Translations under genes and position numbers: made by a program
Shown: piece by piece, positions 1-45,809 of the stretch
How positions within the stretch are numbered: the stretch's first letter is position 1
How the letters are laid out: each line of letters opens with the position of its first letter
Source of the DNA: Hylemonella sp.
GTDB taxonomy: Bacteria; Pseudomonadota; Gammaproteobacteria; Burkholderiales; Burkholderiaceae_C
Direction of reading: 5' to 3'
NCBI GenBank assembly: GCA_036846225.1
Contig: DAIUCJ010000005.1
Location: 24,745-88,744 of the forward strand
Length of the DNA: 64,000 bases
Notes under the pieces: generated by a model
What the model was told of the DNA's origin: nothing
The model's input: the letters and a program-made list of their open reading frames with translations, nothing else
Databases searched by the model: none

Positions 1-909
1 ACCCCGCCGCAGCGCATCGTCCCTTATGTCGAAGACCGTCGCAACATACTCATCGTGCGGCCGCACCACCGCCTGGGCGTGCTGAAGGCCGAGACCCTGA
101 CCACCTTACAGTACGCGCTCAAGCGCGGTATCGAGGCGTTCTATCAGCTCGAAGAGAGCGAGCTCATGGCCGAGCCGCTGCCCACGCGCGACAACCGCCA
201 GTCCATTTTGCTGTTCGAAGCTGCAGAAGGCGGAGCTGGTGTGCTCACGCGGCTGGCCACCGAGCCCGACGCGCTGGCAGCCGTGGCCGCCAAGGCGCTG
301 GAGGTGATGCACTTCAAGGCGCCGCCGGCGGGTCAGGCCTGGCAGCGAGACAGCCTGGTTGAGGAGCTGGACTACAACGGCGAGCCGTACTGCGAGGCTG
401 GCTGCTACCGCTGCCTGCTGTCGTACTACAACCAGCCCGACCACACACTTATTGACCGCAAGGACAAGGCAGCAGGCGGCTTGTTGCTGGATATTCTTTG
501 CCGCTTGACCCAGGCCCGTACCTATCAGGGGACTCAGGGACGAGCTCCGCAAGAGCATGACGCGCAACTGGCCCGCACTGCAGGCAGTACGCTGGAACGA
601 GCCTGGCTCGACCATGTCGCCGAGCATGGCTACCGCAAGCCTGACCGCGGCCAGCACACCATTGCTGGCGCCAATGGTGATTCCGTAGCCTGCGCAGACT
701 TCTTCTACGACGACTTGAACCTGGCCGTCTTCGTCGATGGCCCGAACCACGAGACCGAGGCCCAGCGCGCGCGTGATGCCGCGATCGACCGCAAGCTGGA
801 CGAGCTGGGCTACCTTGTGGTCCGCTTCCCGAAGGAAACCGGGAGCTGGGAAGCCATCTTCAAGAACAACGCCGATCTCTTCGGGCCCGGCAAACCATCC
901 GCACCATGA
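1..909 (+). CDS. drmB: DUF1998 (MrfA-type Zn-binding) domain protein, DrmB-like, 3' fragment, with a C-terminal DUF559/Vsr-like PD-(D/E)xK endonuclease domain
   Basis: The frame is open from base 1 (TPPQRIVPYVEDRRNILIV...), so the 5' end lies outside the window. The Cys cluster CEAGCYRCLLSYYNQPDH (about 391-444) matches the DUF1998 signature. The tail (about 586-909), ADFFYDD..LAVFVDGPNHE..RD..IDRKL..LGYLVVRF, fits the DUF559/Vsr endonuclease pattern. The stop overlaps the next start (ATGA at 906-909). Confidence 0.6.
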   Translation, partial: TPPQRIVPYVEDRRNILIVRPHHRLGVLKAETLTTLQYALKRGIEAFYQLEESELMAEPLPTRDNRQSILLFEAAEGGAGVLTRLATEPDALAAVAAKALEVMHFKAPPAGQAWQRDSLVEELDYNGEPYCEAGCYRCLLSYYNQPDHTLIDRKDKAAGGLLLDILCRLTQARTYQGTQGRAPQEHDAQLARTAGSTLERAWLDHVAEHGYRKPDRGQHTIAGANGDSVACADFFYDDLNLAVFVDGPNHETEAQRARDAAIDRKLDELGYLVVRFPKETGSWEAIFKNNADLFGPGKPSAP

Positions 910-3773: not shown

Positions 3774-3777
3774 CGCC

Positions 3778-8277: not shown

Positions 8278-9137
8278 CCGCTTCGGTCGCTGATGACGCC
8301 ACCAAGGTGAAGTTGGGCACGACTGGTGCGCCGCCAACCTATCTGAGCCATCTGAAGCCAGTCGATGAACTGTCGCTCGCCACCGGCGAGAGGTGCCAGG
8401 TCTGGGAGCTTGCAGTACCTAAGGACGATGCTTGCCTCAGCGAATGGGCCTGCAGGTTCCGGCAGTGTTACTGCCCGGATAGTCAGCTCGACCTACTTCG
8501 CGAAGGCACCGGAAAGACCCGAGCAGAGTACCTGCTTGAGCTCGTGTTTCCGGACCAAAGCAAAGCACCCGGGCCCGGGGTTCGCTCGGGCGACTTTGCA
8601 GAGCTGCTGATAGCTGACTTCGTCGAGTTTCTGCTCGGCTACTGGGTGCCCCGCGGGAAGTACGCGGAAAAGGGAAGCCGCAACGAGTCCGTCAAGGGGG
8701 TCGATATCGTCGGCTTTAAGTGTCCGAACGCCGAGCAACCGAACCCGAGCGATGAGCTGCTGACCTTCGAAGTGAAGGCACAGCTGCGGGGAGGCAAATA
8801 CGACGAGCGTCTCCAAGTAGCGGTCGATGACTCCGCAAAGGACTACCTGCGTGCTGGGGAGACGCTCGCTGCGATGAAGCGCAGGCTTCTGAACATGGGG
8901 GACAGCAGTGCCGCAAAGGTCGTGCAGCGCTTTCAGAATGCAGCCGACCGGCCGTACCTCCTCCTATCCGGCGCTGCAGCCGTCCTGTCGGACGACGCGT
9001 TCGATGCGGCGGGGCTTTCCAAGACTTCTACCGCGAAGCACAACAATGCGCGGGGCTTGCGACTCGTGGTTGTCAAGGGGGAGGGTCTGATGGACCTTGC
9101 CCACGCGCTTTATCAGAGAGCTGCCGATGAGGCCTGA
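8274..9137 (+). CDS. hamA: HamA-like (DUF1837-type) putative PD-(D/E)xK effector of a Hachiman-like system
   Basis: 287-aa ORF with a nuclease-like D..ExK pattern (KGVDIVGF ... LLTFEVKAQL). It sits immediately upstream of, and overlaps, a ~1045-aa DExH helicase, which is the Hachiman/AbpAB architecture. The start overlaps the methylase stop (ATGA at 8274-8277). GC is visibly lower than in its neighbours. Confidence 0.55.
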   Translation: MTASVADDATKVKLGTTGAPPTYLSHLKPVDELSLATGERCQVWELAVPKDDACLSEWACRFRQCYCPDSQLDLLREGTGKTRAEYLLELVFPDQSKAPGPGVRSGDFAELLIADFVEFLLGYWVPRGKYAEKGSRNESVKGVDIVGFKCPNAEQPNPSDELLTFEVKAQLRGGKYDERLQVAVDDSAKDYLRAGETLAAMKRRLLNMGDSSAAKVVQRFQNAADRPYLLLSGAAAVLSDDAFDAAGLSKTSTAKHNNARGLRLVVVKGEGLMDLAHALYQRAADEA

Positions 9138-12100
9138 AGCGAACAGTCGGCGCTACCTAGGCATCACGCGCTCGAAGGGCAAGATGTACGAACTGGGGCT
9201 ACCTGAGGAGTCCCACATCGCCGTCCCCCAGGATGTTGAGCCCGAGGCGCTGTTCCCCTTGTCCATCGGCACGTTGATGGATGCCGCCGTCGGCTTGAAC
9301 GATGCCGCGGAGGACCCACCGGGCATCTCAGACGAACTGCGCGCGGAGCTGGGGTTTGCAGCCAGCTTCTTCGACGCCTACTTGGGGTCGCGCTTCAATG
9401 ACGGCGTTTCGCACGAAGTCAGTCTGTTCGCATCTGCGAGCTACTTCCTCGGCCAACGGCCAGGGAGCAGCTTGGTTCTCGCTCGGCGCCTCACTCTGGA
9501 AGGTTTGAACACCATCGAGCAGGCCGTTATCTGGGCCCTTCGTTCTGAGTGGCATAAGACGCCGGACCTGTCAGCTCATCCGAGTGGAAGCTTGGTTCCA
9601 GGGCTAGTTCAGGAGCTCAAAGCACACTTCGTGGACGGGGCCAGCACCGACGCCGTCATGGCACGGCTATCCCAGCTGCGCACCTGGGCCTACGCAAACG
9701 GAACCGCCAGAGAAGTGGTTCTGGCAGAGGTTACGGCGGCGGTGGTGAAGATGCGGTTGGCCAGCTCGTCATGGAAGTTGCTCCCTGCCTTCAGCGGGTT
9801 GACAAGCGACGCCTGGGCTAACGCCATCCGCCGGCCCGGGTTTCCGAAGGAGCTTTGGCCGTCACAACGGCTCCTCGGTAAGGCGGGCATCTTCGCTGGC
9901 CGCTCGGGCGTCGTGCAGATGCCGACCAGCGCAGGCAAGACGCGCTCGGTGGAAGTCATCCTTCGAAGCGCCTTCCTCGCGGACCGGACTAGGGTCGCGG
10001 TCCTTGTAGCGCCGTTCCGGGCCTTGTGCCATGAGATTGCGACTTCATTCCGTCAGTCCTTCCGGAACGAGGACGTCAGGGTCAACGAGCTATCGGACGC
10101 CCTACAACTCGACTTCACCGACCAGCTTGCCGAACTGTTCGGCGCTGCGCCACCGAGCACACGCTATCTTCTCGTGTTGACGCCGGAGAAGCTGCTTTAC
10201 GTTCTGCGGCAAGCGCCCGAGTTTGCCACGCATCTAGGTCTTGTGGTCTACGACGAGGGTCACCAGTTCGACTCGGGCAAGCGTGGCATCACGTATGAGC
10301 TGCTGCTGGCGGAAATCAAGAGCCAAGTTGCCGCCACCGTACAGACGGTTCTCATCTCGGCTGTCATCAAGAACGCGACGGCTGTCGGCTCATGGCTCAT
10401 TGGCGCAGACCCGAACGTTGTCGATGGAACGGGGCTTCTGTCGACAGCACGTTCGGTTGCCTTTGCCACCTGGAGCGAGGCTCTGGGCCAACTTTGGTTC
10501 TTCGAGTCAGGCGACTATCAGAAGCGAGACTACTTCGTCCCTCGCAGCATTGAAGCTCAAGCCCTTGAGCTCCGCGGCAAAGAGTCCAAACCTCGTGCCT
10601 TCCCCGAACGAGGGGAAGGTGCCTGGAAAGATGTGTCTCTTTACCTTGGTATCCGTTTGGCTCCCAACGGCGCTGTCGCCATCTTCTGCGGACGGAAGGA
10701 CACCGCATCTGGCCTTGCGGCGCGCGCTGTCGACGTGTACGCGCGAGGGTTCTCTCTGACGCCGCCATCCCAAGCCTCGAATCCGGATGAGGTACAGCGG
10801 CTCGTTCACTTGGCTTCCCAGCACTTCGGAGCCGATTCGGTGCTGGCTAAGGCTGCCGCACTGGGCGTGTTTGTCCACCACGGGACGACGCCGCAGGGGA
10901 TACGTCTTTCGATCGAGCATGCGATGCAGCAGGAGCTCATCAAGCTCGTTATCTGCACATCAACCCTAGCTCAAGGCGTCAACCTGCCGATTCGCTACTT
11001 GGTGGTGTCTGGAGTGAACCAAGGCGCCGACCGAATCAAGACGCGTGACTTCCAAAACCTCATCGGCAGAGCGGGGCGCGCAGGCATGCACACGGAGGGT
11101 CTAGTCATTTTCGCGGACCCCCGAGTCATGGACAAGAGACGGCAGGAGCGATGGCGACTTGATGCTGCCATTGAACTGCTGACGCCGGAGAAGGCCGAGG
11201 ACACATCCAGTTCGCTCTTGATGCTCGTATCCCCGCTCCGCACTGCTGATGAGCGAGGGGAGCTGCCGGTCGCCCAGGCCGTTGTGACGCTGGCCTACTT
11301 CCTGCGGGGCGACGCGCTGCGTGAGTGGGCGAAGGGTGTCCTGCAGGCGACCCCGATGCCAGGGGAGAGTGAACGGACGCTGGTGCGCCAGATTTCCAAG
11401 CGGCAGGCCTTACTGGTCGCGCTGGAGAGCTATCTGATGGCAAATCGTGGCACCGATACCTCAGACGAGTTTCTGACGAGAGCACGGAGCCTCGCGGAGT
11501 CCACGCTCGCCTTCGCTTTGGCCAATGAGGCACAGAAGCAGGATTTGCTTCAGCTTTTCGAACTGACCGCGAGGCATGTTGAAGCGATAGCCCCCGCTCA
11601 ATCGCAACAGGCGAAGTTTTCAAAGACGTTGCTAGGGGCAGTGGATGCAGCCGCTGTTGAGCAATGGGTGCTGCAAAACGAGGTAACAGTTGCTGGACTT
11701 ACTGAACCTCGTGATTGGCTCGTCGCCCTTTGGCCGCTGCTGGTTGCCGTTGCCGACAGCAAGCTTTTGCCGGCTATGGAGCCAGACGGTCTCGCTCTCG
11801 AGCTCGCCAAGCGCTGGATGGACGGGGCGACCTACGGTGAACTCATCGCATATGTGAGTGCCAGTGGCGGCACTAAGGCCAAGGGCGAGGATGGCAGACA
11901 GCGCCTCTCAGATGCAGACGTGTTGGGATTCCTGGAGGGCGACCTGGGATTTGACTGCCCATTGGTCATCTCGGCCGTCGGTGAGTTCGTGGCGGAGCTC
12001 CCCACGGTCGACGGTGCGTGCCGTGACAGGTTGAACGCTTTCCAGAAGTGCCTCAAGTACGGTCTACCCGATGCGCTGAGCATCTCAATCTACGAGGTCG

Positions 12101-12264
12101 GTTTCGCCGACCGCTGCATCGCGCAAGAGCTGACTGCTGAGCTGCGGGCGGCAGGCTATGAAGGGGCCCACGTCGACGGGGCCTTGGCAAATCACCGAGA
12201 CGTCTTCGTCGCCGTCTTGACCCGATATCCAAGCTACTTCGAAACAGTCCTAGACGGGCTCTGA
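9127..12264 (+). CDS. hamB: HamB-like DExH-box (Ski2-like SF2) helicase
   Basis: Motifs VVQMPTSAGKT (I), LVVYDEGHQF (II, DEGH), LISAV (III), ICTSTLAQGVNLP (V) and LIGRAGRAGM (VI). ATG at 9127 overlaps the hamA stop by 11 nt; an alternative TTG lies at 9097. Confidence 0.6.
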   Translation: MRPEANSRRYLGITRSKGKMYELGLPEESHIAVPQDVEPEALFPLSIGTLMDAAVGLNDAAEDPPGISDELRAELGFAASFFDAYLGSRFNDGVSHEVSLFASASYFLGQRPGSSLVLARRLTLEGLNTIEQAVIWALRSEWHKTPDLSAHPSGSLVPGLVQELKAHFVDGASTDAVMARLSQLRTWAYANGTAREVVLAEVTAAVVKMRLASSSWKLLPAFSGLTSDAWANAIRRPGFPKELWPSQRLLGKAGIFAGRSGVVQMPTSAGKTRSVEVILRSAFLADRTRVAVLVAPFRALCHEIATSFRQSFRNEDVRVNELSDALQLDFTDQLAELFGAAPPSTRYLLVLTPEKLLYVLRQAPEFATHLGLVVYDEGHQFDSGKRGITYELLLAEIKSQVAATVQTVLISAVIKNATAVGSWLIGADPNVVDGTGLLSTARSVAFATWSEALGQLWFFESGDYQKRDYFVPRSIEAQALELRGKESKPRAFPERGEGAWKDVSLYLGIRLAPNGAVAIFCGRKDTASGLAARAVDVYARGFSLTPPSQASNPDEVQRLVHLASQHFGADSVLAKAAALGVFVHHGTTPQGIRLSIEHAMQQELIKLVICTSTLAQGVNLPIRYLVVSGVNQGADRIKTRDFQNLIGRAGRAGMHTEGLVIFADPRVMDKRRQERWRLDAAIELLTPEKAEDTSSSLLMLVSPLRTADERGELPVAQAVVTLAYFLRGDALREWAKGVLQATPMPGESERTLVRQISKRQALLVALESYLMANRGTDTSDEFLTRARSLAESTLAFALANEAQKQDLLQLFELTARHVEAIAPAQSQQAKFSKTLLGAVDAAAVEQWVLQNEVTVAGLTEPRDWLVALWPLLVAVADSKLLPAMEPDGLALELAKRWMDGATYGELIAYVSASGGTKAKGEDGRQRLSDADVLGFLEGDLGFDCPLVISAVGEFVAELPTVDGACRDRLNAFQKCLKYGLPDALSISIYEVGFADRCIAQELTAELRAAGYEGAHVDGALANHRDVFVAVLTRYPSYFETVLDGL

Positions 12265-12284
12265 CAAGTACACGGTTGATTGAT

Positions 12285-14045
12285 ATGAGCGAAACCCTTT
12301 TCAAAGAAGTCCGCTACACCCTGGGCGGACTCATCAACGGCATCAGCATGGGCCAGATTGGCCTGCCCGACATTCAGCGCCCCTTCGTATGGAGCAACGC
12401 CAAGGTCCGCGACCTGTTCGACTCGATGTACCGCGGCTACCCGGTGGGCTTCTTCCTGTTCTGGGAGACCGGGGCCGACGGCGTGGAGACCAAGGTCATC
12501 GGCGATACCAACAAGCAGAAAACGCCTTCTTTGCTCATCGTTGATGGGCAGCAGCGGCTGACCTCGCTCTACGCGGTCATCCGGCGCGAGGCCGTGCTGC
12601 GCGAGAACTTCGAGCGGGAGCGCATCCGCATCGCGTTCCGGCCACAGAACGGTACCTTCGCGGTACCCGATGCCACGACCGAGCGCGACCCGGAGTACAT
12701 CCTCGACATTTCCGAGGTCTTCAATCGCCCCACGCACAAGACGATTGCCGAGTACCTGAAGCGGCTGTCTTCGGCGAGGGAAGTGTCGGATGCGGAAGAA
12801 GAGAAGGTTGCCGAGGCCATCGGCCGCCTGGCAGGGCTGACGAACTTCCCCTTCATCGCGCTGGAGCTGTCGCAGCAGTGCACCGAGGAGCAGGTGGCCG
12901 ACGTCTTCGTGCGCATCAACAGCGAAGGCAAGAAACTCAACCAGTCGGACTTCATCCTGACCCTCATGTCGGTGTTCTGGGACGAGGGCCGCACCGAGCT
13001 GGAGGCCTTCTGCCGCGCTGCCCGGCAGCCCGGGCCCGCGGGGCAGGCCAGCCCGTTCAACGCCATCTTCCAGCCCGACCCGGACCACCTGCTGCGTGTC
13101 GACGTCGGCGTCGCTTTCCGCCGCGCGCGGCTGGAGCACGTGTACTCGCTGCTGCGAGGCAAGGATCTTTCCACCAGCGAGTCCAGCCCCGAGAAGCGGG
13201 CCAGCCAGTTCGGCAAGCTGCGCGATGCCCAGTCACGGGTGCTCAATCTGACGTACTGGGCTGACTTCCTGAACGTGGTGCGCGCCGCGGGCTACCGCAG
13301 CGCCAAGCACATCAGTTCGGTCAACGCGCTGGTCTTCGCCTACCAGCTGTACCTGCTGGGGCGCACCGAGTACGGCGTGGAGGGTTTCAAGCTCAAGAAC
13401 GCCATCGCGCGCTGGCTGTTCATGTCGTTGCTGACGGGGCGCTACACCACTTCGCCGGAATCACGGATGGAGCAGGACCTCGCCGAGCTGCGGGACATGA
13501 CCTCGGCCGAGCAGTTCCTGGCGCGGTTGGCGACGGTGGAGTCGGCCACGCTGACGGACGACTACTGGACCAAAACCTTGCCGCTGGAGCTGGCCACGTC
13601 CGCAGGACGCAGCCCAGCGCTGTTCGGCTTCTATGCGGCGCAGACGCTGCTGGATGCCCGCGCGCTGTTCTCGTCCATGAAGGTGGTGGACCTGCTGGAC
13701 CCGCCGGCCCAGGGGCAGAAGAAGCCGCTCGAGCGGCATCACCTGTTCCCGCGGCAGTACCTGAAGGGCAAGGGCGTGGAGAGCGTCCGGGATATCAACC
13801 AGATTGCCAACTACGCGCTGGTCGAGTGGGACGACAACATCGCCATTTCGGACGCTGCGCCCAGCCAGTATTGGCCCAAGTACGCGGAGCGCTTCGACCC
13901 CGAGACCTTGGCGGCCATGATGCGCTGGCACGCCTTGCCGCAGGACTGGTGGACGCTGAGCTACGAGGACTTTCTGGTGGCGCGGCGGCCGCTGATTGCC
14001 GATGTGATTCGCCAGGGCTATGTGAAGCTATCCGGAGGTGGGTGA
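12285..14045 (+). CDS. DUF262/DUF1524 protein, GmrSD/BrxU-like type IV (modification-dependent) restriction enzyme family
   Basis: The N-terminus has DUF262 signatures DIQRPFVW and IVDGQQRLTSLY. The C-terminus has a His-Me/DUF1524-like block ERHHLFPRQYL ... NQIANYALVEWDDNIAISD. ATG at 12285 (TTG alternative at 12276) lies about 20 nt after the hamB stop. Confidence 0.75.
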   Translation: MSETLFKEVRYTLGGLINGISMGQIGLPDIQRPFVWSNAKVRDLFDSMYRGYPVGFFLFWETGADGVETKVIGDTNKQKTPSLLIVDGQQRLTSLYAVIRREAVLRENFERERIRIAFRPQNGTFAVPDATTERDPEYILDISEVFNRPTHKTIAEYLKRLSSAREVSDAEEEKVAEAIGRLAGLTNFPFIALELSQQCTEEQVADVFVRINSEGKKLNQSDFILTLMSVFWDEGRTELEAFCRAARQPGPAGQASPFNAIFQPDPDHLLRVDVGVAFRRARLEHVYSLLRGKDLSTSESSPEKRASQFGKLRDAQSRVLNLTYWADFLNVVRAAGYRSAKHISSVNALVFAYQLYLLGRTEYGVEGFKLKNAIARWLFMSLLTGRYTTSPESRMEQDLAELRDMTSAEQFLARLATVESATLTDDYWTKTLPLELATSAGRSPALFGFYAAQTLLDARALFSSMKVVDLLDPPAQGQKKPLERHHLFPRQYLKGKGVESVRDINQIANYALVEWDDNIAISDAAPSQYWPKYAERFDPETLAAMMRWHALPQDWWTLSYEDFLVARRPLIADVIRQGYVKLSGGG

Positions 14046-37312: not shown

Positions 37313-38530
37313 TCATGGCGCGGCCGGGGCCACGGCCATCCCCATGGCGTGGCCGCTGGACCAGGCCCACTGGAAGTTGTAGCCGCCCAGCCAGCCCGTC
37401 ACATCCACGACTTCGCCGATGAAGTACAGGCCGGGCTGCCGGCGTGCCTCCATGGTCTGGCTGGACAGTTCGCGCGTGTCCACCCCGCCGGCGGTGACTT
37501 CGGCCTTGGCATAGCCCTCGGTGCCGCTGGGCGTCAGTTCCCAGCGCTGCAGCCGCAGGGCCAGCGCGGCCAGGGCCTTGTCGGCCGCTTCGTTGACCGG
37601 GCGCTGCCAGACCGGGTCCTGCTGCACCCAGGCCTCGGCCAGGCGGGCCGGCAGCAGCGTGGCCAGTTCGTTGACGATCAGCCGGCGCGAGCGGCGCTTG
37701 GCCTGGGCGAGCCAGGCGGCGGCATCCTGGCCGGGCAGCAGGTCGATGCGCAGCGGCGCTTGCGGCATCCAGTAGCTGGAGATCTGCAGCACCGCCGGGC
37801 CTGAGAGGCCGCGGTGGGTGAACAGCAGATCTTCCAGGAAGGCCATGCGCGCCTTGCCGCTGCCGGTCTCGACCTGCACCGGCAGCGCCAGTCCGGCCAG
37901 GCCGGCGTAAGGCGCCCAGGTCGTGCCGTCGAAGGTCAGCGGCACCAGGGCCGGGCGCGCAGGGACGACGCGCAGGCCGAACTGGCTGGCGATGCGGTAG
38001 CCGAAATCCGTGGCGCCGATCTTGGGGATGGACAGGCCGCCGGTGGCGATGACCAGCGCGCGGGCGCGCACGCCGCCACGGTCGGTGTCCAGCTCGTAGC
38101 CGGCCGCGCCGTGCCGCACGGCATGCACCGCGCAGGGCTGCCAGCGCGTGACGCCGCCGGCGGCGCACTCGCGCAGCAGCAGCTGGATGATGTCGTCGGC
38201 GGAGCGGTCGCAAAACAGCTGGCCTTTGTGCTTCTCGTGGAAAGGGATGCCATCGCGCTGCAGCAGCGCGATGAAATCCGCCGGCGTGTAGCGGCTCAGC
38301 GCCGAGCGGCAGAAGTGCGGGTTCTCGCTGATGAAGTGCCGGTGCGGCTGGCGCGGGTCCAGGTCGCGGTTGGTGAAATTGCAGCGCCCGCCGCCGGAGA
38401 TGCGGATCTTCTCGGCCACCCGGGCTGCGTGGTCGATGACCAGGACCCTGAGGCCGCGCTGCCCGGCCACGCCGGCGCCGAACAGGCCGGCCGCTCCCGC
38501 GCCGACCACCACCACGTCGAATTGCTGCAT
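37313..38530 (-). CDS. NAD(P)/FAD-dependent oxidoreductase, HI0933/YhiN family flavoprotein
   Basis: [24 protein letters not shown], and the C-terminal [22 protein letters not shown]. Start at the ATG at 38530 (MQQFD). Confidence 0.85.
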
Positions 38531-38587
38531 GGCGCGCAGTGTAGGCGCTGGCGCCGCGCGTCCCGACGGTCCTTGGCATAGAATGGC

Positions 38588-38682
38588 CGCTGCTCCGGGG
38601 TGTCGTCCGCGCGCGGATGGCTGAGACGGTGAAGCCGAACCCGTGAACTTGACTCGGATCATGCCGACGTAAGAAGAGCGGT
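38588..38682 (+). promoter_or_regulatory. TPP (thiamine pyrophosphate, THI-box) riboswitch
   Basis: The sequence ctccGGGGTGtcg..ggCTGAGAcggtgaagccgaACCCgtgaacTTGActCGGATCATGCCGACGTAAGAAGagc carries the conserved GGGGUG, CUGAGA and ACCC elements and the GAUxAUGCC..CGUA core. Relative to E. coli thiM, P5 shows compensatory pairing (UCGG/CCGA versus CUGG/CCAG), and so does P4 (CUU/AAG versus CCU/AGG). It lies 70 nt upstream of the first ORF of a six-gene operon. Confidence 0.85.
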
Positions 38683-38753
38683 TGCAGTGCGGGCCGGCCC
38701 ACGGCTCAAGCCGCACCTTTCGGAGCATGACGACGCATGAATGACGAAAGGCT

Positions 38754-39875
38754 GTGGTGGCAGAAGCTGCATTTCCCGCGCAAAGCGATACATCGGCGGA
38801 CGCATCGGCGCTGACGGCCGAGTTGCTGGACTTCATCGGGCGGCCCGGCGCCACCGATGAGGAGTTCAACGCGTTGGCGCTGCGTTTGTTTGCCCATCAG
38901 TTCCGGCACAACCCGGCCTTGCAGCGCTACTGCCAGCAGCGCGGGCGCACGCCCCGCACCGTGCGGCGCTGGCAGGACATTCCGGCCGTGCCGATCAGCG
39001 GCTTCAAGGACCTGACGCTGAGCTGCGTGCCGCCGGCGCAGTGCGAGCGCGTGTTCATGACCAGCGGCACGACGCGCGGCGATGTGCGCGGCCGCCACTA
39101 CCACCCGCATCTGCAGGTCTATGACCGCTCGATGGTGGTGAATTTCCGCCAGCGCTTCATGGCCGGCCGCGCGCGCATGCGCATCGGCGTGCTGTTCCCG
39201 GACGAGCAGACGCTGCCCCATTCCTCGCTGGCGCATTACCTGGCGCTGGCGCTGCGCGAATTCGGCACGCCCCACAGCCGCTATTTCCTCGGCCCCGAGG
39301 GGCTGCAGCTGGACGCGCTGTGCGAGGCGCTGCAGCAGGCCCAGTCCAGCGGCGAGCCGTTCGCCCTGCTGGGCGCGAGCTACGGTTTCGTGCATCTGCT
39401 CGACGCCCTGGCCGCACGCGGGCTGCGCTTTCGTCTGCCGGCAGGCAGCTGGCTGCTGGATACCGGCGGCTTCAAGGGCCAGTCGCGCGAGATGCAGCCG
39501 CAGGACTTTTACGAAGCGCTGGCGCAGACTTTTGGCGTGCCGCGCAGCGCCTGCATCAACATGTACGGCATGACCGAGCTCAGCACCCAGTTCTACGACG
39601 ACGGCAACGCCGTGTGCCCGTCGGTCAAGTCCGGCCCGCACTGGATCCGCAGCCGCGTGCTCGATCCGGTTAGCGGGCAGGAGGTGGCCGCGGGCGAGCG
39701 CGGCATTCTGGCGCACACCGACCTGGGCAATTTCAATTCCGTACTCACCATCCTGACCGAGGATGTGGGCGTGCAGGTCGAAGGCGGCTTTCTGCTGCTG
39801 GGACGTGCCCAAGGGGCGCAGGCGCGCGGCTGCTCGCTGGCGGTGGACGAGTTTCTGCAGGCCGCGCGCGCATGA
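38754..39875 (+). CDS. LuxE-like acyl-protein synthetase / adenylate-forming enzyme
   Basis: 373 aa. The pattern W.DIPAVPISGFKD...VFMTSGTTRG is typical of LuxE-family (PF04443-like) proteins. It is paired with a LuxC-like gene by an ATGA overlap. GTG start (38754 or 38757), preceded by gaaagg. Confidence 0.65.
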   Translation: MVAEAAFPAQSDTSADASALTAELLDFIGRPGATDEEFNALALRLFAHQFRHNPALQRYCQQRGRTPRTVRRWQDIPAVPISGFKDLTLSCVPPAQCERVFMTSGTTRGDVRGRHYHPHLQVYDRSMVVNFRQRFMAGRARMRIGVLFPDEQTLPHSSLAHYLALALREFGTPHSRYFLGPEGLQLDALCEALQQAQSSGEPFALLGASYGFVHLLDALAARGLRFRLPAGSWLLDTGGFKGQSREMQPQDFYEALAQTFGVPRSACINMYGMTELSTQFYDDGNAVCPSVKSGPHWIRSRVLDPVSGQEVAAGERGILAHTDLGNFNSVLTILTEDVGVQVEGGFLLLGRAQGAQARGCSLAVDEFLQAARA

Positions 39876-41323
39876 AGATCCAGGCCGCCCATGTGCCCGG
39901 CTTGCCAGCGCAAGCGCTGGACTGGCATACCCTGCCGTTCGGCACGGGCGCGCAGGCGGTGGACGTGCGGGTGCCGCGGCTGACGCCGGCGCAGCTGCAA
40001 GCCCTGGCCACGCAGGTGCGCGAGCGCGGCGGCGCCGTGCTGCGCGCCATGCCGCTGGCGCAGATCGTGGCCGCGATCGACCGCGCCGTCGCGCGATTGC
40101 TCAACCCGGCCGATCCTTGCCGCATGGAGCTGGATCTGCTGCTGCCGCGCATCACCGGCTTCGATGCCGAGATGGTGCGGCTGGGCCTGAACGCCAGCCT
40201 CAAAACCTTTCGCGCGCCGCAGCTGCAGCGCTTTCTGGCCGAGGATTTCCCCAATCCGGCCGTGCTCGACGCCTTTCAGCCCGCCCTCAAGGGCGGCATG
40301 GTCCGCGCCTACGGGCCGCGCCTGCTGGCCCAGGTCTGGGCCGGCAATGTGCCGGGCCTGCCGCTGTGGGGCCTGGTTTGCGCTCTGCTGGTCAAGGCGC
40401 CGGTCGTGGGCAAGGTGGCCAGCGCCGAGCCGCTGTTTGCCCCGGTGTTCGCCCGGCTGCTGGCCGAGGTCGAGCCGCGCCTGGCCGATGCGCTGGCCAT
40501 CGTGTGGTTCCCCGGCGGGGACACGGCCAGCGAGCGCGCGCTCTTGCAGCAGGCCGATGTGGTGCTGGCCTACGGCGGCAACGACACGCTGGCCGCGCTG
40601 CGCCAGCAGGTGCCGCCCATGGCCCGTTTCCTGCCCCATGGCCACAAGCTCAGCGCCGGCCTGGTCGGCGCCGGCGCGCTGGACGTGCAGCAGGCCCAGG
40701 CCACGGCCCGGCTGGCGGCGCTGGACGTGGTGCGTTACGAGCAGCAGGGTTGCTACTCGCCGCATACGTTTTACGTGGCCCGGGGCGGCCGCGTGTCGCC
40801 GCAGGAATTCGCCCAGGCGCTGGCCGGCGAGCTGGCCGCGCTGCAGCACAAGTTCGCGCGCCGCACGCTGACGCTGGAGGAAGCCGCCAGCGTGGCAGCC
40901 TGGCGGCAGGGGCAGGAGCTGCGCGGCCATGCCGAGGGGGGCGTGCAGCTGCTGGGCGCAGCCGGTGCCCCCTGGGCCGTGGCCTTTTCCGACGAAGCGG
41001 CCCCCCTGCAGCCCTGTGCGCTCAACCGCACGGTGCAGGTGCAGGCGGTCGATACGCTGGCCGATGCCGTACCCCTGCTGGCAGCCCAGCGCGGCCTGCT
41101 GCAGACGGTGGGCGTGGCCGCCGCTCCGCAGGAGCTGCATGCGCTGGCGCCGCTGCTGGGCGAGGCCGGGGTGACGCGCATCTGCGCGCTGGGCCGCATG
41201 ACCGCGCCCGAGGCCGGCTGGCACCACGATGGCCGCTACAGCCTGCTCGATCTGGTGCGCATCGTCGAGCTGGAGGCTTCGGCGGAAGCCGCGGCCGAAG
41301 CCTATGCGCCCTACCGGGATTGA
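39872..41323 (+). CDS. LuxC-like acyl-CoA/acyl-protein reductase (aldehyde-forming)
   Basis: 483 aa. It has the LuxC-family hallmarks WAGNVPGLPLWGLVCALLVKAPVVGKVAS, YGGNDT and EQQGCYSPH (candidate catalytic Cys). Confidence 0.65.
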   Translation: MKIQAAHVPGLPAQALDWHTLPFGTGAQAVDVRVPRLTPAQLQALATQVRERGGAVLRAMPLAQIVAAIDRAVARLLNPADPCRMELDLLLPRITGFDAEMVRLGLNASLKTFRAPQLQRFLAEDFPNPAVLDAFQPALKGGMVRAYGPRLLAQVWAGNVPGLPLWGLVCALLVKAPVVGKVASAEPLFAPVFARLLAEVEPRLADALAIVWFPGGDTASERALLQQADVVLAYGGNDTLAALRQQVPPMARFLPHGHKLSAGLVGAGALDVQQAQATARLAALDVVRYEQQGCYSPHTFYVARGGRVSPQEFAQALAGELAALQHKFARRTLTLEEAASVAAWRQGQELRGHAEGGVQLLGAAGAPWAVAFSDEAAPLQPCALNRTVQVQAVDTLADAVPLLAAQRGLLQTVGVAAAPQELHALAPLLGEAGVTRICALGRMTAPEAGWHHDGRYSLLDLVRIVELEASAEAAAEAYAPYRD

Positions 41324-41328
41324 GTCGG

Positions 41329-42162
41329 ATGGACGCAGCGCACGCCTCTGCCACTGTCGTTGCTGCCGCGCCGTCCGGGGCAGAGGCCGGTTCGGCCTCG
41401 AACGGGCAGCCGGTTCCGTTTCTGCAGATGCGGCAAGTCACTTACACCTACCCCGGCTGGCCGCCGGTGGTGCAGCAGGTGGACTGGGACATCGCGCCGG
41501 GCGAGTTCCATTGCCTGGTCGGGCGCAGCGGCTGCGGCAAGACCACGCTGCTCAAGCTGGCTGCAGGGCTGCTTGCGCCCCAGCAGGGTGAAGTGCGGGT
41601 GCAGGGGCGTTTGCTGCAGGGGCCGGGCCCGCAGACGGGCTTTGTGTTCCAGCAGCCCACGCTGCTGGAGTGGCTGACCGTGCGCGACAACGTGCTGCTG
41701 CCCCTGAGCCTGCACGGCCGGCCTGCGGCCGAGGCGGTGCGGCAGGCCGAAGCGCTGCTGCAGCAGCTGGGACTGGGCCGCCAGCTGGACCACTACCCGC
41801 GCCAGCTCTCGGGCGGGCAGCAAAGCCGGGTGGCGCTGGCGCGCGCGCTGCTGCCGCAGCCGCCCATCCTGCTGATGGACGAGCCGTTTGCCGCGCTCGA
41901 TGCCCTGACGCGGGAGGAGCTGCAGGACGAACTGCAGCGCCTGTGCCGCGCGCGCGGCACCTCGGTGTTTTTCGTCACGCACGACATCGGCGAGGCGGTC
42001 TATCTGGCCGACCGGGTCGCGGTGATGCGCGCTGGCCGCATCGGCCACGACATCCGCGTGCCGCTGCCGCGGCCGCGCACGCAGGCGTTGCGCTACGAAG
42101 CGCCCTTCAACGCCCTGTGCGCCGAGCTGCGGCGCGCGATGGACCCGCAGGAGGGGGCATGA
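41329..42162 (+). CDS. ABC transporter ATP-binding protein (NitT/TauT family; ThiZ-like)
   Basis: Walker A GRSGCGKTT, signature LSGGQQSRVALARAL, Walker B LLMDEPFAALD. Only the last 834 nt of ORF 39763..42162 are taken as coding. Confidence 0.85.
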   Translation: MDAAHASATVVAAAPSGAEAGSASNGQPVPFLQMRQVTYTYPGWPPVVQQVDWDIAPGEFHCLVGRSGCGKTTLLKLAAGLLAPQQGEVRVQGRLLQGPGPQTGFVFQQPTLLEWLTVRDNVLLPLSLHGRPAAEAVRQAEALLQQLGLGRQLDHYPRQLSGGQQSRVALARALLPQPPILLMDEPFAALDALTREELQDELQRLCRARGTSVFFVTHDIGEAVYLADRVAVMRAGRIGHDIRVPLPRPRTQALRYEAPFNALCAELRRAMDPQEGA

Positions 42163-42917
42163 AGCATCCCCGAGTGCTCGCGCTGCTGTTGCTGCTGCTG
42201 CTCATCGGCGCGTGGGAGTGGGCGGTGCCGGCCCTGGGCTTTTCGCCGCTGGTGCTGCCTGCGCCCAGCGCGGTGCTGGCCGCGCTGTGGCGGGCCCTGG
42301 CCAGCGGGTTTCTGTGGCCGCATCTGGGCCAGACGGTGCTGGAGCTGCTGCTGGGGCTCGTACTGGGGGTGGCGCTGGGTTTCGCCGGCGGCGTGCTGCT
42401 GGGCGAGTCCACCGCGCTGCGGCGCGTGCTCATGCCCTATGTCGTCACCAGCCAGGTGATCCCGAAGCTGGCGCTGCTGCCGCTGTTCATCGTCTGGTTC
42501 GGCTTCGGCACCGTGCCCACGGTGGTCATGACGGCGCTGATCTGCTTCTTTCCGCTGCTCGAAAACACGATGACGGCGATCGCGCACATCGATGCGGCAC
42601 GGCTGGATCTGTTCCGCATGCTGGGCGCCACGCGCTGGCGGACGCTGTGGCGGCTGAAGGTGCCTGCCGGACTGCCTGCCATCCTGGCCGGCCTGCGGGT
42701 GGCGGTGGTGCTGGCGCTGGTGGGCGCGGTGGTGGGCGAATTCATCGGCGCCAGCCAGGGGCTGGGCGCACTGATCATCGCCACCCAGGGCTCGATGGAC
42801 ACGCCGCTGATGTTCGCGGTGCTGCTGGTCATCACCGTGCTGGGCCTGCTGCTGTACGAAATCACGCTGTGGATGGAGCGCCGGCTCCTGCGCCCTTATT
42901 TCCCACCTTCCGATTGA
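42159..42917 (+). CDS. ABC transporter permease (NitT/TauT family; ThiX-like)
   Basis: 252 aa with six predicted TM segments and an EAA-like loop AAR.DLFRMLGATRW. The start overlaps the ATPase stop (ATGA). Confidence 0.85.
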   Translation: MKHPRVLALLLLLLLIGAWEWAVPALGFSPLVLPAPSAVLAALWRALASGFLWPHLGQTVLELLLGLVLGVALGFAGGVLLGESTALRRVLMPYVVTSQVIPKLALLPLFIVWFGFGTVPTVVMTALICFFPLLENTMTAIAHIDAARLDLFRMLGATRWRTLWRLKVPAGLPAILAGLRVAVVLALVGAVVGEFIGASQGLGALIIATQGSMDTPLMFAVLLVITVLGLLLYEITLWMERRLLRPYFPPSD

Positions 42918-42930
42918 CGAGGATCCGATC

Positions 42931-43923
42931 ATGAACAAACGACAGACGCTGCGCTGGCTGGCTGCCGGCGCCACCGCCTCCCTGCTGGCGCCCTGGGCCA
43001 CGGCCCAGGGCCGGCTGGACAGGATCACCATCGCCGGCTGGGGCAAGCCCATCAGCGAAATCACCAACCTGCTGGTCGAGGAAGACAAGGGCTTTTTCCG
43101 CGCCCGCGGCATCGAGCTGGTCTATCTGCCGGGCGCCGGCGGCGGCGATGCGATGCGCAACCTGCTCAGCGGCCAGGGCGATGTGGCCTTCACCGACCCG
43201 GGCTCGGTCTATGCCGCGCTGGACCGTGGCGAGAAGCTGCGCATCATCTACGACATCTATCCGCAGAACGTGTTCAACGTGGTGGCGCTGAAGTCCAGCG
43301 GCATCCGCACCCCGGCCGATCTCAAGGGCAAAAAGATCGGGGTGTACAGCCTGTCCAGCGGCACGCGCACGCACCTGGCACTGCTGCTGAGCCAGGCGGG
43401 ACTGAGCGAGCGCGATGTGACCATCGTGCCCACCGGTCTGCTGAACTTCGCGCCCCTGATGCAGGGGCAGGTGGACGCCACCGCCGCCACCGACACCGGC
43501 CTGGTGGTCGGGCGGATGAAGGGGCTGGGCGAGGTCCACGTGATGGAGGTGCGCGATTTCCTCAACCTCTCCAGCGACGTGTTCGTGGTGCGCGAGGAAA
43601 CCTACCAGACGCGCAAGGAAGTGCTGCGGCGTTTTCTGGCCGCCTACCGCGATAGCGCGCAGTGGATGATGGACCACCCGCAGGAGGCGGCCCGGCTGGC
43701 CGTGCGGCGCGCCATCGACGGCCAGAACGAGGCCGTGAACCTGGAAGTGATCAGGCTGCGCAACGCCTCCAGCGTGTCGCCGCTCACTCAAAAGCAGGGG
43801 TTGGGCGCCATCGATGTGGACATGCTGCAGAAAGGGGCCGATGCCTGGCGCCGCATCGGGCTGATCCAGCGCGAGCTGCGCATGAAGGACGTGGTCGCCA
43901 CCGACCTGCTGCCGGGGCGCTGA
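42931..43923 (+). CDS. ABC transporter substrate-binding protein, NMT1/THI5-like (ThiY-like)
   Basis: Signal peptide MNKRQTLRWLAAGATASLLAPWATA, and SsuA/NMT1-type periplasmic binding-fold sequence (ADLKGKKIGVYS.SSGT). Confidence 0.75.
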   Translation: MNKRQTLRWLAAGATASLLAPWATAQGRLDRITIAGWGKPISEITNLLVEEDKGFFRARGIELVYLPGAGGGDAMRNLLSGQGDVAFTDPGSVYAALDRGEKLRIIYDIYPQNVFNVVALKSSGIRTPADLKGKKIGVYSLSSGTRTHLALLLSQAGLSERDVTIVPTGLLNFAPLMQGQVDATAATDTGLVVGRMKGLGEVHVMEVRDFLNLSSDVFVVREETYQTRKEVLRRFLAAYRDSAQWMMDHPQEAARLAVRRAIDGQNEAVNLEVIRLRNASSVSPLTQKQGLGAIDVDMLQKGADAWRRIGLIQRELRMKDVVATDLLPGR

Positions 43924-43924
43924 G

Positions 43925-44692
43925 ATGCGCTTTCAGGGGCAGGTGATCCTGGTCAGCGGCGCCAGCCGCGGCATCGGCGCGGCGATTGCGCGCGCCTTCG
44001 CGGCCGAGGGCGGCTACGTCGTCGTCAACTACCTGCGCAACGAAGCCGCGGCGCAGCAGGTGGTGCAGGACTGCCGCGCCGCCGGGGGCGACGCCTGGGC
44101 GCTGCAGGCCGACGTCACCGACGCCGCGGCCGTGCAGGCCCTGGTGGCGCAGGTGCAGGCCGAACTCGGGCCCATCGACGTGCTGGTGCACAACGCTTTC
44201 GCCCCGTACCGCTTCGATCCGCAGCAGCGTCAGCGCTTCTGGGAAACCGGCTGGAGCGACTACCAGACGCAGTTCGACGGGGCCGTGCGCTCGGCCTACC
44301 ACCTGTGCCAGGCCGTGCTGCCGGGCATGCGCCAGCGCGCCGGCGGTCGCATCGTGTTCGTCGCCACCGATCTGGTCGAGCGCCCCGTCGTGCCTTATCA
44401 CGACTACGGCACGGCCAAGGCGGCGCTGGTGGGCTTCATGCGCCATCTGGCGGCCGAGCTGGGGCCGCTGGGCATACGCGTCAACGCGGTGGCGCCGGGC
44501 CTGGTCTATCCGACCGATGCCAGCCGCGCAACCAGGGAGGACGTGCAGGAAACGCTCGTCGCGCAGACGCCGCTTCGGCGCATCGCCCGCCCCGAGGACG
44601 TGGCCGGCCCGGTGCTGTTCCTGGCCTCGGACTGGAGCCGGTTCGTCACCGGCCAGCTGCTGCTGGTCGATGGCGGGCTGGTGATGAAATGA
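43925..44692 (+). CDS. Short-chain dehydrogenase/reductase (FabG-like SDR)
   Basis: Cofactor motif VSGASRGIGAAIA, NNAF-type motif HNAF, catalytic Y..YGTAK, and PG..YPTD. It starts 1 nt after the binding-protein stop. Confidence 0.85.
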   Translation: MRFQGQVILVSGASRGIGAAIARAFAAEGGYVVVNYLRNEAAAQQVVQDCRAAGGDAWALQADVTDAAAVQALVAQVQAELGPIDVLVHNAFAPYRFDPQQRQRFWETGWSDYQTQFDGAVRSAYHLCQAVLPGMRQRAGGRIVFVATDLVERPVVPYHDYGTAKAALVGFMRHLAAELGPLGIRVNAVAPGLVYPTDASRATREDVQETLVAQTPLRRIARPEDVAGPVLFLASDWSRFVTGQLLLVDGGLVMK

Positions 44693-44753
44693 CCGCTTAG
44701 CCGGTGGGGCAGGCCGTCTGGCCTACACTGCCTGCTGATCCCTTCTGTTGCCC

Positions 44754-45809
44754 ATGTCCGCTTCTGAATCCCTGATCCTCGGCATCGAGTCCTCCTGCGA
44801 CGAAACCGGCGTGGCGCTGGTGCAGGCCACGGCGCAGGGCGTGCCGCGACTGCTGGCCCACGCCCTGCACAGCCAGGTGGAGATGCACCAGGCCTATGGC
44901 GGCGTGGTGCCCGAGTTGGCCAGCCGCGACCACATCCGTCGCGTGCTGCCGCTGACCACACGGGTGCTGGCCGAGGCGGGCCGCTCGCTGCAGGACATCG
45001 ACGTCGTTGCCTACACCCGCGGGCCCGGGCTGGCTGGGGCGCTGCTGGTGGGCTCGGGCTTAGCCTGCGCGCTGGGCGCGGCGCTGGGCAGGCCGGTGCT
45101 GGGCGTGCACCATCTGGAAGGCCATCTGCTGTCGCCGTTTCTGAGCGCCGATCCGCCCGCTTTTCCCTTCGTCGCGCTGCTGGTCTCGGGTGGGCACACC
45201 CAGCTGATGCGGGTGGACGGGGTAGGGCGCTACGAGCTGCTGGGCGAGACCATCGACGACGCGGCGGGCGAGGCTTTCGACAAATCGGCCAAGCTGCTGG
45301 GGCTGGGCTACCCCGGCGGGCCGGCGCTGGCGCGCCTGGCCGAACAGGGCGATGCGCAGGCCTTCAAGCTGCCGAGGCCGCTGCTGCACAGCGGGGATCT
45401 GGACTTTTCCTTCGCCGGCCTCAAGACCGCGGTGCTGACGCAGGTCCAGCGCCTGGGCGATGCGCTGCCTGCGCGCAAGGCCGATCTGGCCGCGTCCACG
45501 CAGGCGGCCATCGTCGAGGTGCTGGTGAAAAAGTCGCTGGCCGCGCTGCAGCAGACGGGACTGCAACGCTTGGTCGTCGCCGGTGGGGTGGGGGCCAACC
45601 GGCTGCTGCGCGCGCAGCTCGATGCCGCCTGCGCCCGCCGCCGCGTGCGCGTGCATTACCCGGAATTGCATCTATGCACCGACAACGGCGCGATGATCGC
45701 GCTGGCGGCGGCCATGCGCCTGCAGGCCGGCCTGCAGCAGGCCAGCCGCGCCTACACCTTCGAAGTCCAGCCGCGCTGGCCGCTGGAAGCGATCGGGCAG
45801 GCGGCCTGA
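44754..45809 (+). CDS. tsaD: tRNA N6-adenosine threonylcarbamoyltransferase TsaD
   Basis: [31 protein letters not shown] and GGVGANR. ATG at 44754 (TTG alternative at 44748). Confidence 0.92.

Follow-up and report, generated by a model that had tools for sequence, protein, structure and literature searches.

The window analyzed here is a 64,000-nucleotide stretch from a Hylemonella sp. assembly (Burkholderiales; GCA_036846225.1, contig DAIUCJ010000005.1), which carries on its plus strand six tightly linked genes behind a thiamin pyrophosphate (TPP) riboswitch aptamer, or THI-box. In order, these genes encode a LuxE-like adenylating acyl-protein synthetase that would activate a carboxylate (38754/38757-39875; PF04443, 71 bits), a LuxC-like acyl-thioester reductase predicted to form an aldehyde (39872-41323; PF05893, 286 bits), the NitT/TauT-type ATP-binding subunit of an ATP-binding cassette (ABC) importer (41329-42162; PF00005, 116 bits), its permease, which resembles SaoP, TauC and SsuC (42159-42917; PF00528, 105 bits), a periplasmic NMT1/THI5-like substrate-binding protein (SBP) (42931-43923; PF09084, 166 bits) and a short-chain dehydrogenase/reductase (SDR) of the OarX family, proposed to carry out an aldehyde-to-alcohol step (43925-44692; NF006393, 297.1 bits). 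The six genes had been recognized in an earlier sequence-only reading of the locus. Pfam and NCBIfam profiles confirm all of them, the junctions given at that time (an ATGA overlap at each of 39872 and 42159; spacings of 5, 13 and 1 nt elsewhere) prove exact in the sequence, and the transporter gene order is corrected to ATPase, permease and SBP. The ATGA overlap between the luxE-like and luxC-like genes suggests translational coupling, and a sequence scan of the operon detected neither promoter-like nor terminator-like internal sites. The flanking genes are unrelated, with a divergent HI0933-like flavoprotein on one side (37313-38530, minus strand) and tsaD on the other (44748-45809).

The THI-box and the expression platform

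The aptamer (38586-38692, plus strand) was matched by the Rfam model RF00059 over its full length (model positions 1-105 of 105) with 53.5 bits and E=1.2e-9 in a permissive E-value scan of 38300-39000. The gathering score of this model is 54.3 bits, 0.8 bits above the window aptamer, and for this reason the whole-window Rfam scan at gathering thresholds returned no matches. The cmsearch check that the sequence-only reading had proposed thus comes out mixed, with a significant full-length match and a score marginally under the cutoff. All the core motifs are found (CUGAGA, ACCC, ACUUGA and CGUAAGAA), as is the CGUA element. Compared with the core consensus of RF00059 (CUGAGA, ACCC, ACCUGA and CGUAGGGA), there are two departures, ACCUGA to ACUUGA and UAGGGA to UAAGAA, which pair with each other and amount to a compensatory C-G to U-A change in stem P4. 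Across 26 aligned orthologous leaders, this pair is U-A in Betaproteobacteria versus the canonical C-G in Alphaproteobacteria, and double-sided compensatory changes are seen in 8 of the 12 predicted aptamer pairs. A custom covariance model made from these 26 leaders scores the window aptamer at 88.2 bits. This model was trained on the very leaders that it was used to search, and Rfam's own model served as an independent check: at the identical position, RF00059 reaches its gathering score in 9 of the 15 orthologous loci tested, and it does so as well in Pantoea and L. plantarum, the passing copies scoring between 54.4 and 71.7 bits. Judged by its motifs and covariation, the window aptamer is a genuine full-length TPP aptamer, for which TPP binding and repression are predicted. 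The THI-box announced upstream of the six genes is thus well founded; its distance from them, given as 70 nt, is not, since 61-64 nt separate the end of the aptamer from the start codon.

Directly 5′ of the aptamer, the hexamer TAGAAT (38579-38584, plus strand) reads as a putative -10 promoter box. In the leader alignment, orthologs carry TAACAT, TAAGAT or TATAAT at this place, and a simple sigma-70 scan did not call the window hexamer. Downstream of the aptamer, the minimum free energy (MFE) fold and the complementarity to stem P1 delineate a putative switching element, CCUUUCGGAGCA (38716-38727, plus strand). Its 5′ half, CCUUUCG (38716-38722), is an anti-Shine-Dalgarno sequence (anti-SD), and its 3′ half, CGGAGCA (38721-38727), complements the 5′ strand of P1, UGCUCCG (38591-38597). 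In the MFE fold of 38586-38775, P1 is closed and followed by a hairpin in which CCUUUCG is paired with the Shine-Dalgarno sequence (SD) CGAAAGG (38745-38751) and the GUGGUG start region; the fold and the leader alignment define this ribosome-binding region as 38745-38759 on the plus strand, with GTG codons at 38754 and 38757. The conserved luxE-like start is probably GTG 38757 rather than 38754, as favored by the alignment with five orthologous loci (L001, L004, L006, L011 and L012).

At low TPP, the 5′ strand of P1 would capture CGGAGCA and leave the SD accessible to the ribosome, while in the TPP-bound state P1 would close and the anti-SD would mask both the SD and the start codon. Constrained folding alone did not recover the pairing between CGGAGCA and P1, the anti-SD hairpin being dominant; we propose this step because the complementarity is conserved across leaders. 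A downstream complement of at least 6 nt to the 5′ strand of P1 is present in 53 of 72 leaders, and a composite C(C/U)UUCGGAGC(A), followed by CGAAGGA or CGAAAGG and the start codon, recurs in most betaproteobacterial leaders. Alphaproteobacterial leaders contain a seemingly analogous CCCUUU/AAAGGG pair. Taken this way, the leader would be a translational OFF switch of the usual logic. Two mini-open reading frames also lie between the aptamer and luxE, at 38727-38744 (ATG ACG ACG CAT GAA TGA) and 38737-38814 (∼25 codons, out of frame), and are probably fortuitous.

The enzymes and the importer

The LuxE-like protein matches LuxE of the 7XC6 structure (7XC6_E) with E=2e-19, and the LuxC-like profile matches 7XC6_A with E=8e-28, its QQGCYSP motif aligning with the active-site DQQACFS of LuxC. 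In the LuxE-like protein, 97% or more of 75 orthologs retain the motifs TSGTT, DTGG.K and NMYGMTELS and the Cys360 of a C-terminal GCS. Cys360 is located 13 residues from the end, and its match to the cysteine of lux LuxE is positional only, as the HMMER alignment stops before the tail. Cys294 of the LuxC-like protein is the sole conserved cysteine among 81 sequences and aligns with the active-site cysteine of LuxC. In the lux relay, LuxE adenylates the acid, holds it as a thioester on its C-terminal cysteine and passes it to the LuxC cysteine for NADPH-dependent reduction to the aldehyde (PMC12041015). Because the adenylation motifs and the acyl-carrying cysteines are conserved, the pair of the operon is expected to run the same type of relay chemistry on a different acid. 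The two proteins are not lux orthologs, since they score roughly tenfold below the NCBIfam equivalog cutoffs (68.7 vs 550 bits for LuxE, NF052244; 73.9 vs 750 bits for LuxC, NF052251). Probes for the luciferase family (PF00296) gave no match in the window, and no lux partner was seen among the flanking genes, luxD not having been specifically searched. In four PGAP/RefSeq records (L089, L090, L091 and L093), the module is labeled 'long-chain fatty acid--CoA ligase' or 'acyl-CoA synthetase', 'acyl-CoA reductase' and '3-oxoacyl-ACP reductase', and PGAP gives the LuxC-like gene the term GO:0008218 (bioluminescence). This naming of the module is a systematic misannotation.

Regarding the importer, the best NCBIfam matches of the ATPase are nitrate, sulfonate and taurine ATPases. 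The profile of the binding protein retrieved from the PDB 3QSL (2e-16), THI5 (1e-9) and ThiY, which binds formylaminopyrimidine (FAMP) (3IX1, 1.2e-7), ahead of TauA (4e-4) and SsuA (3e-3); 2X7P also ranked above these last two. A candidate N-terminal signal peptide, MNKRQTLRWLAAGATASLLAPWATAQG, was read by eye with no prediction tool. The claim of a ThiXYZ-type importer therefore holds for the NitT/TauT-type ATPase and permease, the NMT1/THI5 fold of the SBP and the TPP riboswitch, and fails for the SBP as a ThiY ortholog (rounded, E=1e-7).

The SDR scores 297.1 bits against NF006393, for a cutoff of 292 bits, and the next family follows at 196.8 bits, which is a lead of ∼100 bits over FabG-type models. 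The NF006393/PRK08642 clade was taken as the marker of OarX, distinct from FabG. A search of 1.8 billion cluster representatives retrieved standalone relatives with 45-52% identity from Bacteroidota, Latescibacteria, Rhodococcus and a metagenomic contig (L086). In Rhodococcus sp. OK302 (L081, 7917-10132), an RF00059 match of 69.8 bits is found directly upstream of OarX, whose stop codon is overlapped by the gene of a 447-residue flavin mononucleotide (FMN) monooxygenase of the NtaA/DmoA family (TIGR03860, 548 bits). From this order of riboswitch, OarX and FMN monooxygenase, the locus corresponds to the published oarX-fmnO arrangement. Against NF006393, the Rhodococcus OarX reaches 435 bits, and its full-length alignment with the window SDR shows 45% identity. 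The Bacteroidota protein (L083), the closest non-orthologous relative with 52% identity, is encoded two genes away from thiD, with no TPP riboswitch match at E<=1e-3 in that locus, and no thiamin genes surround the OarX-like SDR of Latescibacteria (L085). The OarX-thiM pair of the metagenomic contig (L086, 1-7050) stands beside phage-like genes (LPD38 polyvalent-protein domain, YopX and many small open reading frames). Residues that are unusual for SDRs are common to the window protein and these relatives (F97, W110, P154, H159 and a T-D/N-L...PVVPYHDY loop). Fusion proteins found among the closest SDR relatives were considered as possible ThiD-OarX fusions and rejected, as they are generic MaoC-KR and A-PCP-KR proteins.

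By these profile scores, the window SDR is a member of the OarX family within a peripheral clade (297 vs 435 bits), and its gene closes the riboswitch-controlled operon. Its thiamin-linked neighbors are limited to the ThiY-like transporter in the window and extend to thiD, thiO, thiS, thiG and thiE in orthologous loci. The oarX gene has been known as a thiamin- and TPP-riboswitch-linked reductase of orphan function since Rodionov et al. 2002 (PMC11223231). Placing LuxE, LuxC and SDR outside the known thiamin pathways, as the sequence-only reading did, thus needs correcting for the SDR. The text of PMC11223231 has zero occurrences of 'Lux', 'acyl-protein', 'ABC' and Comamonadaceae. Our literature search found no other paper treating OarX and thiamin together and none linking TPP riboswitches to LuxE/LuxC; the 2013 RegPrecise survey omits Comamonadaceae and Rhodospirillales.

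Conservation, plasmid carriage and thiamin gene neighborhood

A scan of GTDB representative genomes gave at least 436 relatives, and the best 80 loci were analyzed with flanks of up to 7 kb. In a public protein collection, more than 2,100 LuxC-like homologs are found at E<=1e-20, called 'acyl-CoA reductase' or 'hypothetical protein' where they are named. The 80 loci come from Comamonadaceae, Alcaligenaceae and Thauera and, within Alphaproteobacteria, from Azospirillum, Roseomonas, Rhodospirillales and Asaia. A tblastn search with the six window proteins showed a colinear six-gene cassette in 68 of 72 untruncated loci; the exceptions are three closely related marine Rhodospirillaceae with LuxE-LuxC-SDR only and one locus without the ATPase. 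The custom covariance model returned a single match in each of 72 loci and in the window, each ahead of luxE and in the orientation of the operon. Counting the window and the 74 related loci whose upstream region is available, a THI-box is thus present in 73 of 75 copies. Among the eight loci without a match, six are cut off upstream and two (L041 and L050) are true absences, where the riboswitch has either disappeared or given way to another control. The cassette is complete in L050 and ends at the contig edge in L041, and the upstream gene of both reads, by eye only, as a protein-L-isoaspartate methyltransferase.

A search of plasmid records extended this distribution. The module is found on Azospirillum chromids, on Pantoea dispersa megaplasmids as a riboswitch-LuxE-LuxC-SDR unit with no transporter (Rfam TPP match of 71.7 bits) and on a Priestia megaterium plasmid as the full six-gene cassette (49 bits, E=9e-7). 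It is also carried by a 10-kb plasmid of Lactiplantibacillus plantarum (L090, 1390-6321), where a TPP match of 67.6 bits precedes the permease gene, and its genes are present on a 21-kb plasmid of Levilactobacillus brevis (L093, 3181-7878), the riboswitch having been scanned in L090 and not in L093. In both Lactobacillales plasmids, a pbuX-like nucleobase:cation symporter of the NCS2 family (PF00860, 243 bits) takes the place of the ABC system; the symporter scores above the cutoff of NF037981 ('purine/pyrimidine permease'). These plasmids belong to food-fermentation lactobacilli; the modules adjoin toxin-antitoxin, integrase and transposase genes, and one of the plasmids is mobilizable. The module proteins of the two species are identical (same WP accessions), which suggests a recent horizontal spread of a putative vitamin B1 salvage trait.

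The riboswitch-linked core therefore spans four bacterial classes (Alpha-, Beta- and Gammaproteobacteria and Firmicutes). As the enzyme trio and the riboswitch persist with an ABC system, an NCS2 permease or no transporter at all, the invariant unit is riboswitch + LuxE-like + LuxC-like + SDR, and the transporter is swappable. The linkage between riboswitch and luxE/luxC-like genes, which the sequence-only reading wished to see checked within Burkholderiales, extends far outside this order. The scenario that would have undermined it, a chance fusion of two operons, is excluded because the linkage is conserved in 73 of 75 copies across classes, Rfam's own model recovering the riboswitch in 9 of 15 loci.

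In addition, the cassette repeatedly adjoins thiamin genes. In nine Ramlibacter-type loci, the THI-box is ∼950 nt upstream of luxE and the gene in between is thiD (PF08543, 315 bits); several of these loci continue after the SDR gene with thiO, thiS, thiG and thiE on the same strand. With thiD before luxE and thiO/thiS/thiG/thiE after the SDR gene, the cassette is situated inside a thiamin operon. Four further loci, including Limnohabitans, have a convergent thiD just downstream of the SDR gene, with thiO and thiG coming next in three of the four, so that thiD is adjacent in 13 loci in total. ThiM, ThiC, ThiH and ThiF were found neither within 7 kb in the 80 loci nor in the window. In three Variovorax loci (L059, L064 and L080; ∼5640-5860), a short open reading frame between the THI-box and luxE bears N- and C-terminal motifs of ThiD (VLSVAGSDSGG..., ...GPLKHGHAPEAMRL). 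It resembles a thiD in decay, and the ancestral order would accordingly have been riboswitch-thiD-luxE.

Two observations on the surroundings may be added. In Polaromonas (L049, 5158-5697) and two related loci, the gene immediately upstream of the THI-box, in the same orientation, encodes a Nudix hydrolase whose N-terminus bears a zinc ribbon. PMC11223231 lists among its references a Nudix enzyme pre-empting thiamin damage (Goyer et al. 2013), and the Polaromonas neighborhood may be mere synteny. Elsewhere in the window, the region 906-14045 resembles a defense island, with an SNF2/DEAD helicase (906-3773), a 1517-residue Eco57I/MmeI-type methyltransferase protein (3724-8277) and a GmrSD-family (DUF262) nuclease (12276-14045).

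Substrate, alternatives and known systems

Thiamin is expensive to synthesize, soil and water contain little of it, and many microbes rely on scavenged precursors. Its oxidation products 4-amino-2-methylpyrimidine-5-carboxylic acid (PCA), 4-methylthiazole-5-acetic acid (MTA) and thiamin acetic acid have been described in bacteria and in mammalian urine, and we know of no organism or enzyme that recycles these carboxylates. We propose, with moderate confidence, that the operon is a TPP-repressed salvage system for such an oxidized breakdown acid, most likely PCA. An oxidized thiamin fragment is the proposed substrate because the acid-aldehyde-alcohol chemistry, the riboswitch and the gene neighbors agree. 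The ABC system with its ThiY/THI5-related SBP would import the acid, and the LuxE-like enzyme would adenylate it with ATP and hold it as a thioester on Cys360. The acyl group would then move to Cys294 of the LuxC-like enzyme for NADPH-dependent reduction to the aldehyde, which the OarX-type SDR would convert into the alcohol HMP (4-amino-5-hydroxymethyl-2-methylpyrimidine), ready to enter the normal ThiD to ThiE route. We infer the direction and order of these reactions and the identity of the substrate, like the regulatory fold, from sequence and gene context. The acid-aldehyde-alcohol logic had already been put forward as speculation by the sequence-only reading, and it fits both the conserved catalytic residues and the embedding among thiD and thiOSGE. 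Four findings favor the pyrimidine moiety: the SBP profile ranks THI5 and ThiY above sulfonate binders; a nucleobase-family permease under a TPP riboswitch replaces the ABC system in Lactobacillus plasmids; thiD is a frequent neighbor while thiM never occurs within 7 kb; and the closest non-orthologous OarX, from Bacteroidota, is linked to thiD.

In the study of 87 genomes by Oliveira-Filho, Rodionov and Hanson (2024), it was argued that OarX should act as a reductase on thiamin, or on one of its moieties, in an activated carboxyl (or oxo) form, and the known and prevalent oxidation products named there are PCA, MTA and thiamin acetic acid (PMC11223231). An occasional acyl-CoA synthetase neighbor was reported and detoxification roles were also raised in that work. 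The genetics performed in Corynebacterium glutamicum were negative, and the authors considered that the OarX substrate may be other than the five compounds tested (PMC11223231). The C. glutamicum operon, as described there, consists of oarX-fmnO only, with no LuxE/LuxC or dedicated importer (PMC11223231). Because that operon is devoid of the LuxE/LuxC pair and of the importer, the negative outcome does not bear on the operon studied here.

Several points nevertheless weigh against the salvage of PCA. The window aptamer is 0.8 bits short of Rfam's gathering score, and in the uncultured Alphaproteobacteria L041 and L050 the cassette occurs with no detectable THI-box even with filters off. On its profile comparisons, the binding protein is related to ThiY only distantly and is no ortholog: ThiY (3IX1) comes only eighth in the PDB ranking, and the closest entries, 3QSL and 4NMY, carry generic depositor names. 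The adjacency to thiD may reflect only the insertion of the cassette into a thiD-thiOSGE operon. C. glutamicum, although it carries oarX, cannot use PCA (PMC11223231). Finally, the OarX genes of other phyla are associated with thiazole genes no less frequently than with pyrimidine genes (PMC11223231; L086), and in L086 the OarX-type SDR gene is directly followed by thiM.

A broader interpretation, which we put forward tentatively and regard as possible though doubtful, is that OarX is a general reductase of one thiamin-derived aldehyde, in the simplest case 4-amino-5-formyl-2-methylpyrimidine reduced to HMP, and that lineage-specific front ends generate this aldehyde under the same TPP riboswitch. 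The front end would be of LuxE/LuxC type here, acting on the pyrimidine carboxylate, and FmnO in Actinobacteria. Members of the NtaA/DmoA family break C-N or C-S bonds with release of aldehydes; accordingly, FmnO could act on an aminomethylpyrimidine, on the methylene bridge of thiamin or on the pyrimidine methanesulfonate left by sulfite cleavage. As a member of this family, FmnO would be an enzyme of the bacterial luciferase fold, and OarX would consequently be paired with homologs of either LuxC/LuxE or LuxA/B across phyla. If true, this would explain the failure of C. glutamicum on the five compounds tested and reveal modular, horizontally mobile repair routes for oxidized B1 built from lux-homologous parts (LuxC, LuxE and a luciferase-like monooxygenase). 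In the alphaproteobacterial variant that lacks a transporter (L023, L034 and L067), a 367-residue PF00296 monooxygenase is encoded divergently from the riboswitch (L023, 4488-5591, minus strand) and a convergent EamA-family transporter gene lies downstream. These three loci are close relatives and count as a single observation, and their monooxygenase is 24% identical to FmnO, which makes it a lead only.

The same machinery and regulation could also serve the thiazole moiety, MTA being reduced through the acetaldehyde to hydroxyethylthiazole (HET) for phosphorylation by ThiM. This is rather unlikely in our opinion, even if elsewhere OarX clusters with thiM, thiOSGF and tenI (PMC11223231), a pattern that the OarX-thiM order of L086 repeats. 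The thiO, thiS, thiG and thiE genes behind the SDR gene would suit a thiazole route and are found in the same loci as thiD; that the SBP is no ThiY ortholog also speaks for MTA. However, the absence of thiM within 7 kb in 80 loci would leave HET without a co-localized kinase, de novo thiazole synthesis is already encoded beside the cassette in several carriers, the SBP falls within the THI5/ThiY pyrimidine clade and the Lactobacillus versions use a nucleobase-family permease.

Less likely still is an intact oxidized thiamin (thiamin acetic acid), or another or modified carboxylate of a thiamin moiety, restored by the operon to a usable form. The riboswitch and the gene context indicate a link to thiamin and not which moiety is involved, and the suggestion that the OarX substrate may lie outside the five compounds (PMC11223231) would accommodate such a molecule. 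On the other hand, no thiamin kinase or pyrophosphokinase is present among the recurrent flanking gene clusters, and SBPs of the NMT1/THI5 type and NCS2 permeases generally serve small ligands. Ligands of the size of thiamin normally use TbpA/ThiB, ThiT or YkoEDC systems.

It is improbable that the ABC system is an ordinary ThiXYZ-type importer of HMP or FAMP and that the enzymes are protective or accessory, for instance in removing a reactive pyrimidine or thiazole aldehyde. The ThiXYZ-like architecture under a TPP riboswitch and the detoxification roles raised for OarX (PMC11223231) would fit such a scheme; yet the enzyme trio and the riboswitch persist when the ABC system is absent or replaced, which makes the enzymes the core, and an ATP-consuming activation of an acid serves no purpose in aldehyde detoxification. 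Finally, that the annotation is correct, with a fatty acid/acyl-CoA reductase and a 3-oxoacyl-ACP reductase producing lipid aldehydes or alcohols and a THI-box irrelevant to function, is very hard to believe, since the PGAP names and the Pfam families LuxE and LuxC are opposed by the tenfold shortfall from the equivalog cutoffs, the lack of luxA, luxB and luxD nearby (luxD not being specifically searched), a riboswitch linkage kept across four classes and several gene arrangements, the embedding in thiamin operons and the coupling to importers of small polar molecules.

TPP-riboswitch-controlled salvage operons for thiamin precursors are already known as a kind, as is the orphan OarX family of the SDR. 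What appears to be undescribed is the constant partnership of OarX with a carboxylate reductase of LuxE/LuxC type, together with a modular transporter and a spread over four classes on chromosomes, chromids and small plasmids. OarX is positioned here, in hundreds of genomes, after a presumed ATP/NADPH-driven acid-to-aldehyde machine and an importer, under a TPP riboswitch. This gives a pathway so far hypothesized without genes its specific candidate enzymes and makes the oarX question, which is more than 20 years old, testable. If our proposal of carboxylate salvage is true, it would supply the missing activation step and the transporter, add a new compound to the exchangeable B1 currencies of microbial communities and correct a widespread misannotation as fatty-acid or bioluminescence functions. 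It would also be, to our awareness, the first non-bioluminescent role for LuxC/LuxE, and the OarX question could be approached in probably tractable carriers such as Azospirillum brasilense, Pantoea dispersa, Priestia megaterium and Lactiplantibacillus plantarum.

The closest mechanistic parallel is the lux LuxC-LuxE pair of Photobacterium (7XC6), with which the operon shares both families, adjacent overlapping genes, the acyl-accepting cysteine of LuxC and a cysteine near the C-terminus of LuxE. In contrast to the lux pair, whose substrate is myristate, the operon proteins are distant homologs that are under predicted TPP control, are coupled to a small-molecule importer and a putative alcohol-forming reductase, and presumably act on a heteroaromatic acid. 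Carboxylic acid reductases (CAR; A-PCP-R) achieve the same net conversion of an acid into an aldehyde with ATP and NADPH, including with aromatic acids. However, CAR is a single polypeptide with a phosphopantetheine arm, whereas the operon enzymes would pass the acyl group between the cysteine thiols of two proteins. As for the OarX proteins of PMC11223231, the window-type SDR resembles them by its best match to NF006393, its TPP riboswitch and the thiD/thiOSGE neighbors of related loci; it differs from them by its constant LuxE-like and LuxC-like partners, its usual importer and the absence of fmnO.

The salvage of formylaminopyrimidine by ThiXYZ with YlmB and TenA, reportedly the work of Jenkins et al. 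in 2007, is the nearest counterpart at the level of physiology. Both systems combine a riboswitch-controlled ABC importer with an SBP of the NMT1/THI5 fold, and in both a degraded pyrimidine would be returned to HMP and ThiD. While the ThiXYZ/YlmB/TenA route is hydrolytic, relying on a deformylase and TenA, and handles aminomethyl derivatives, the route encoded by the operon would be reductive and start from a carboxylate.

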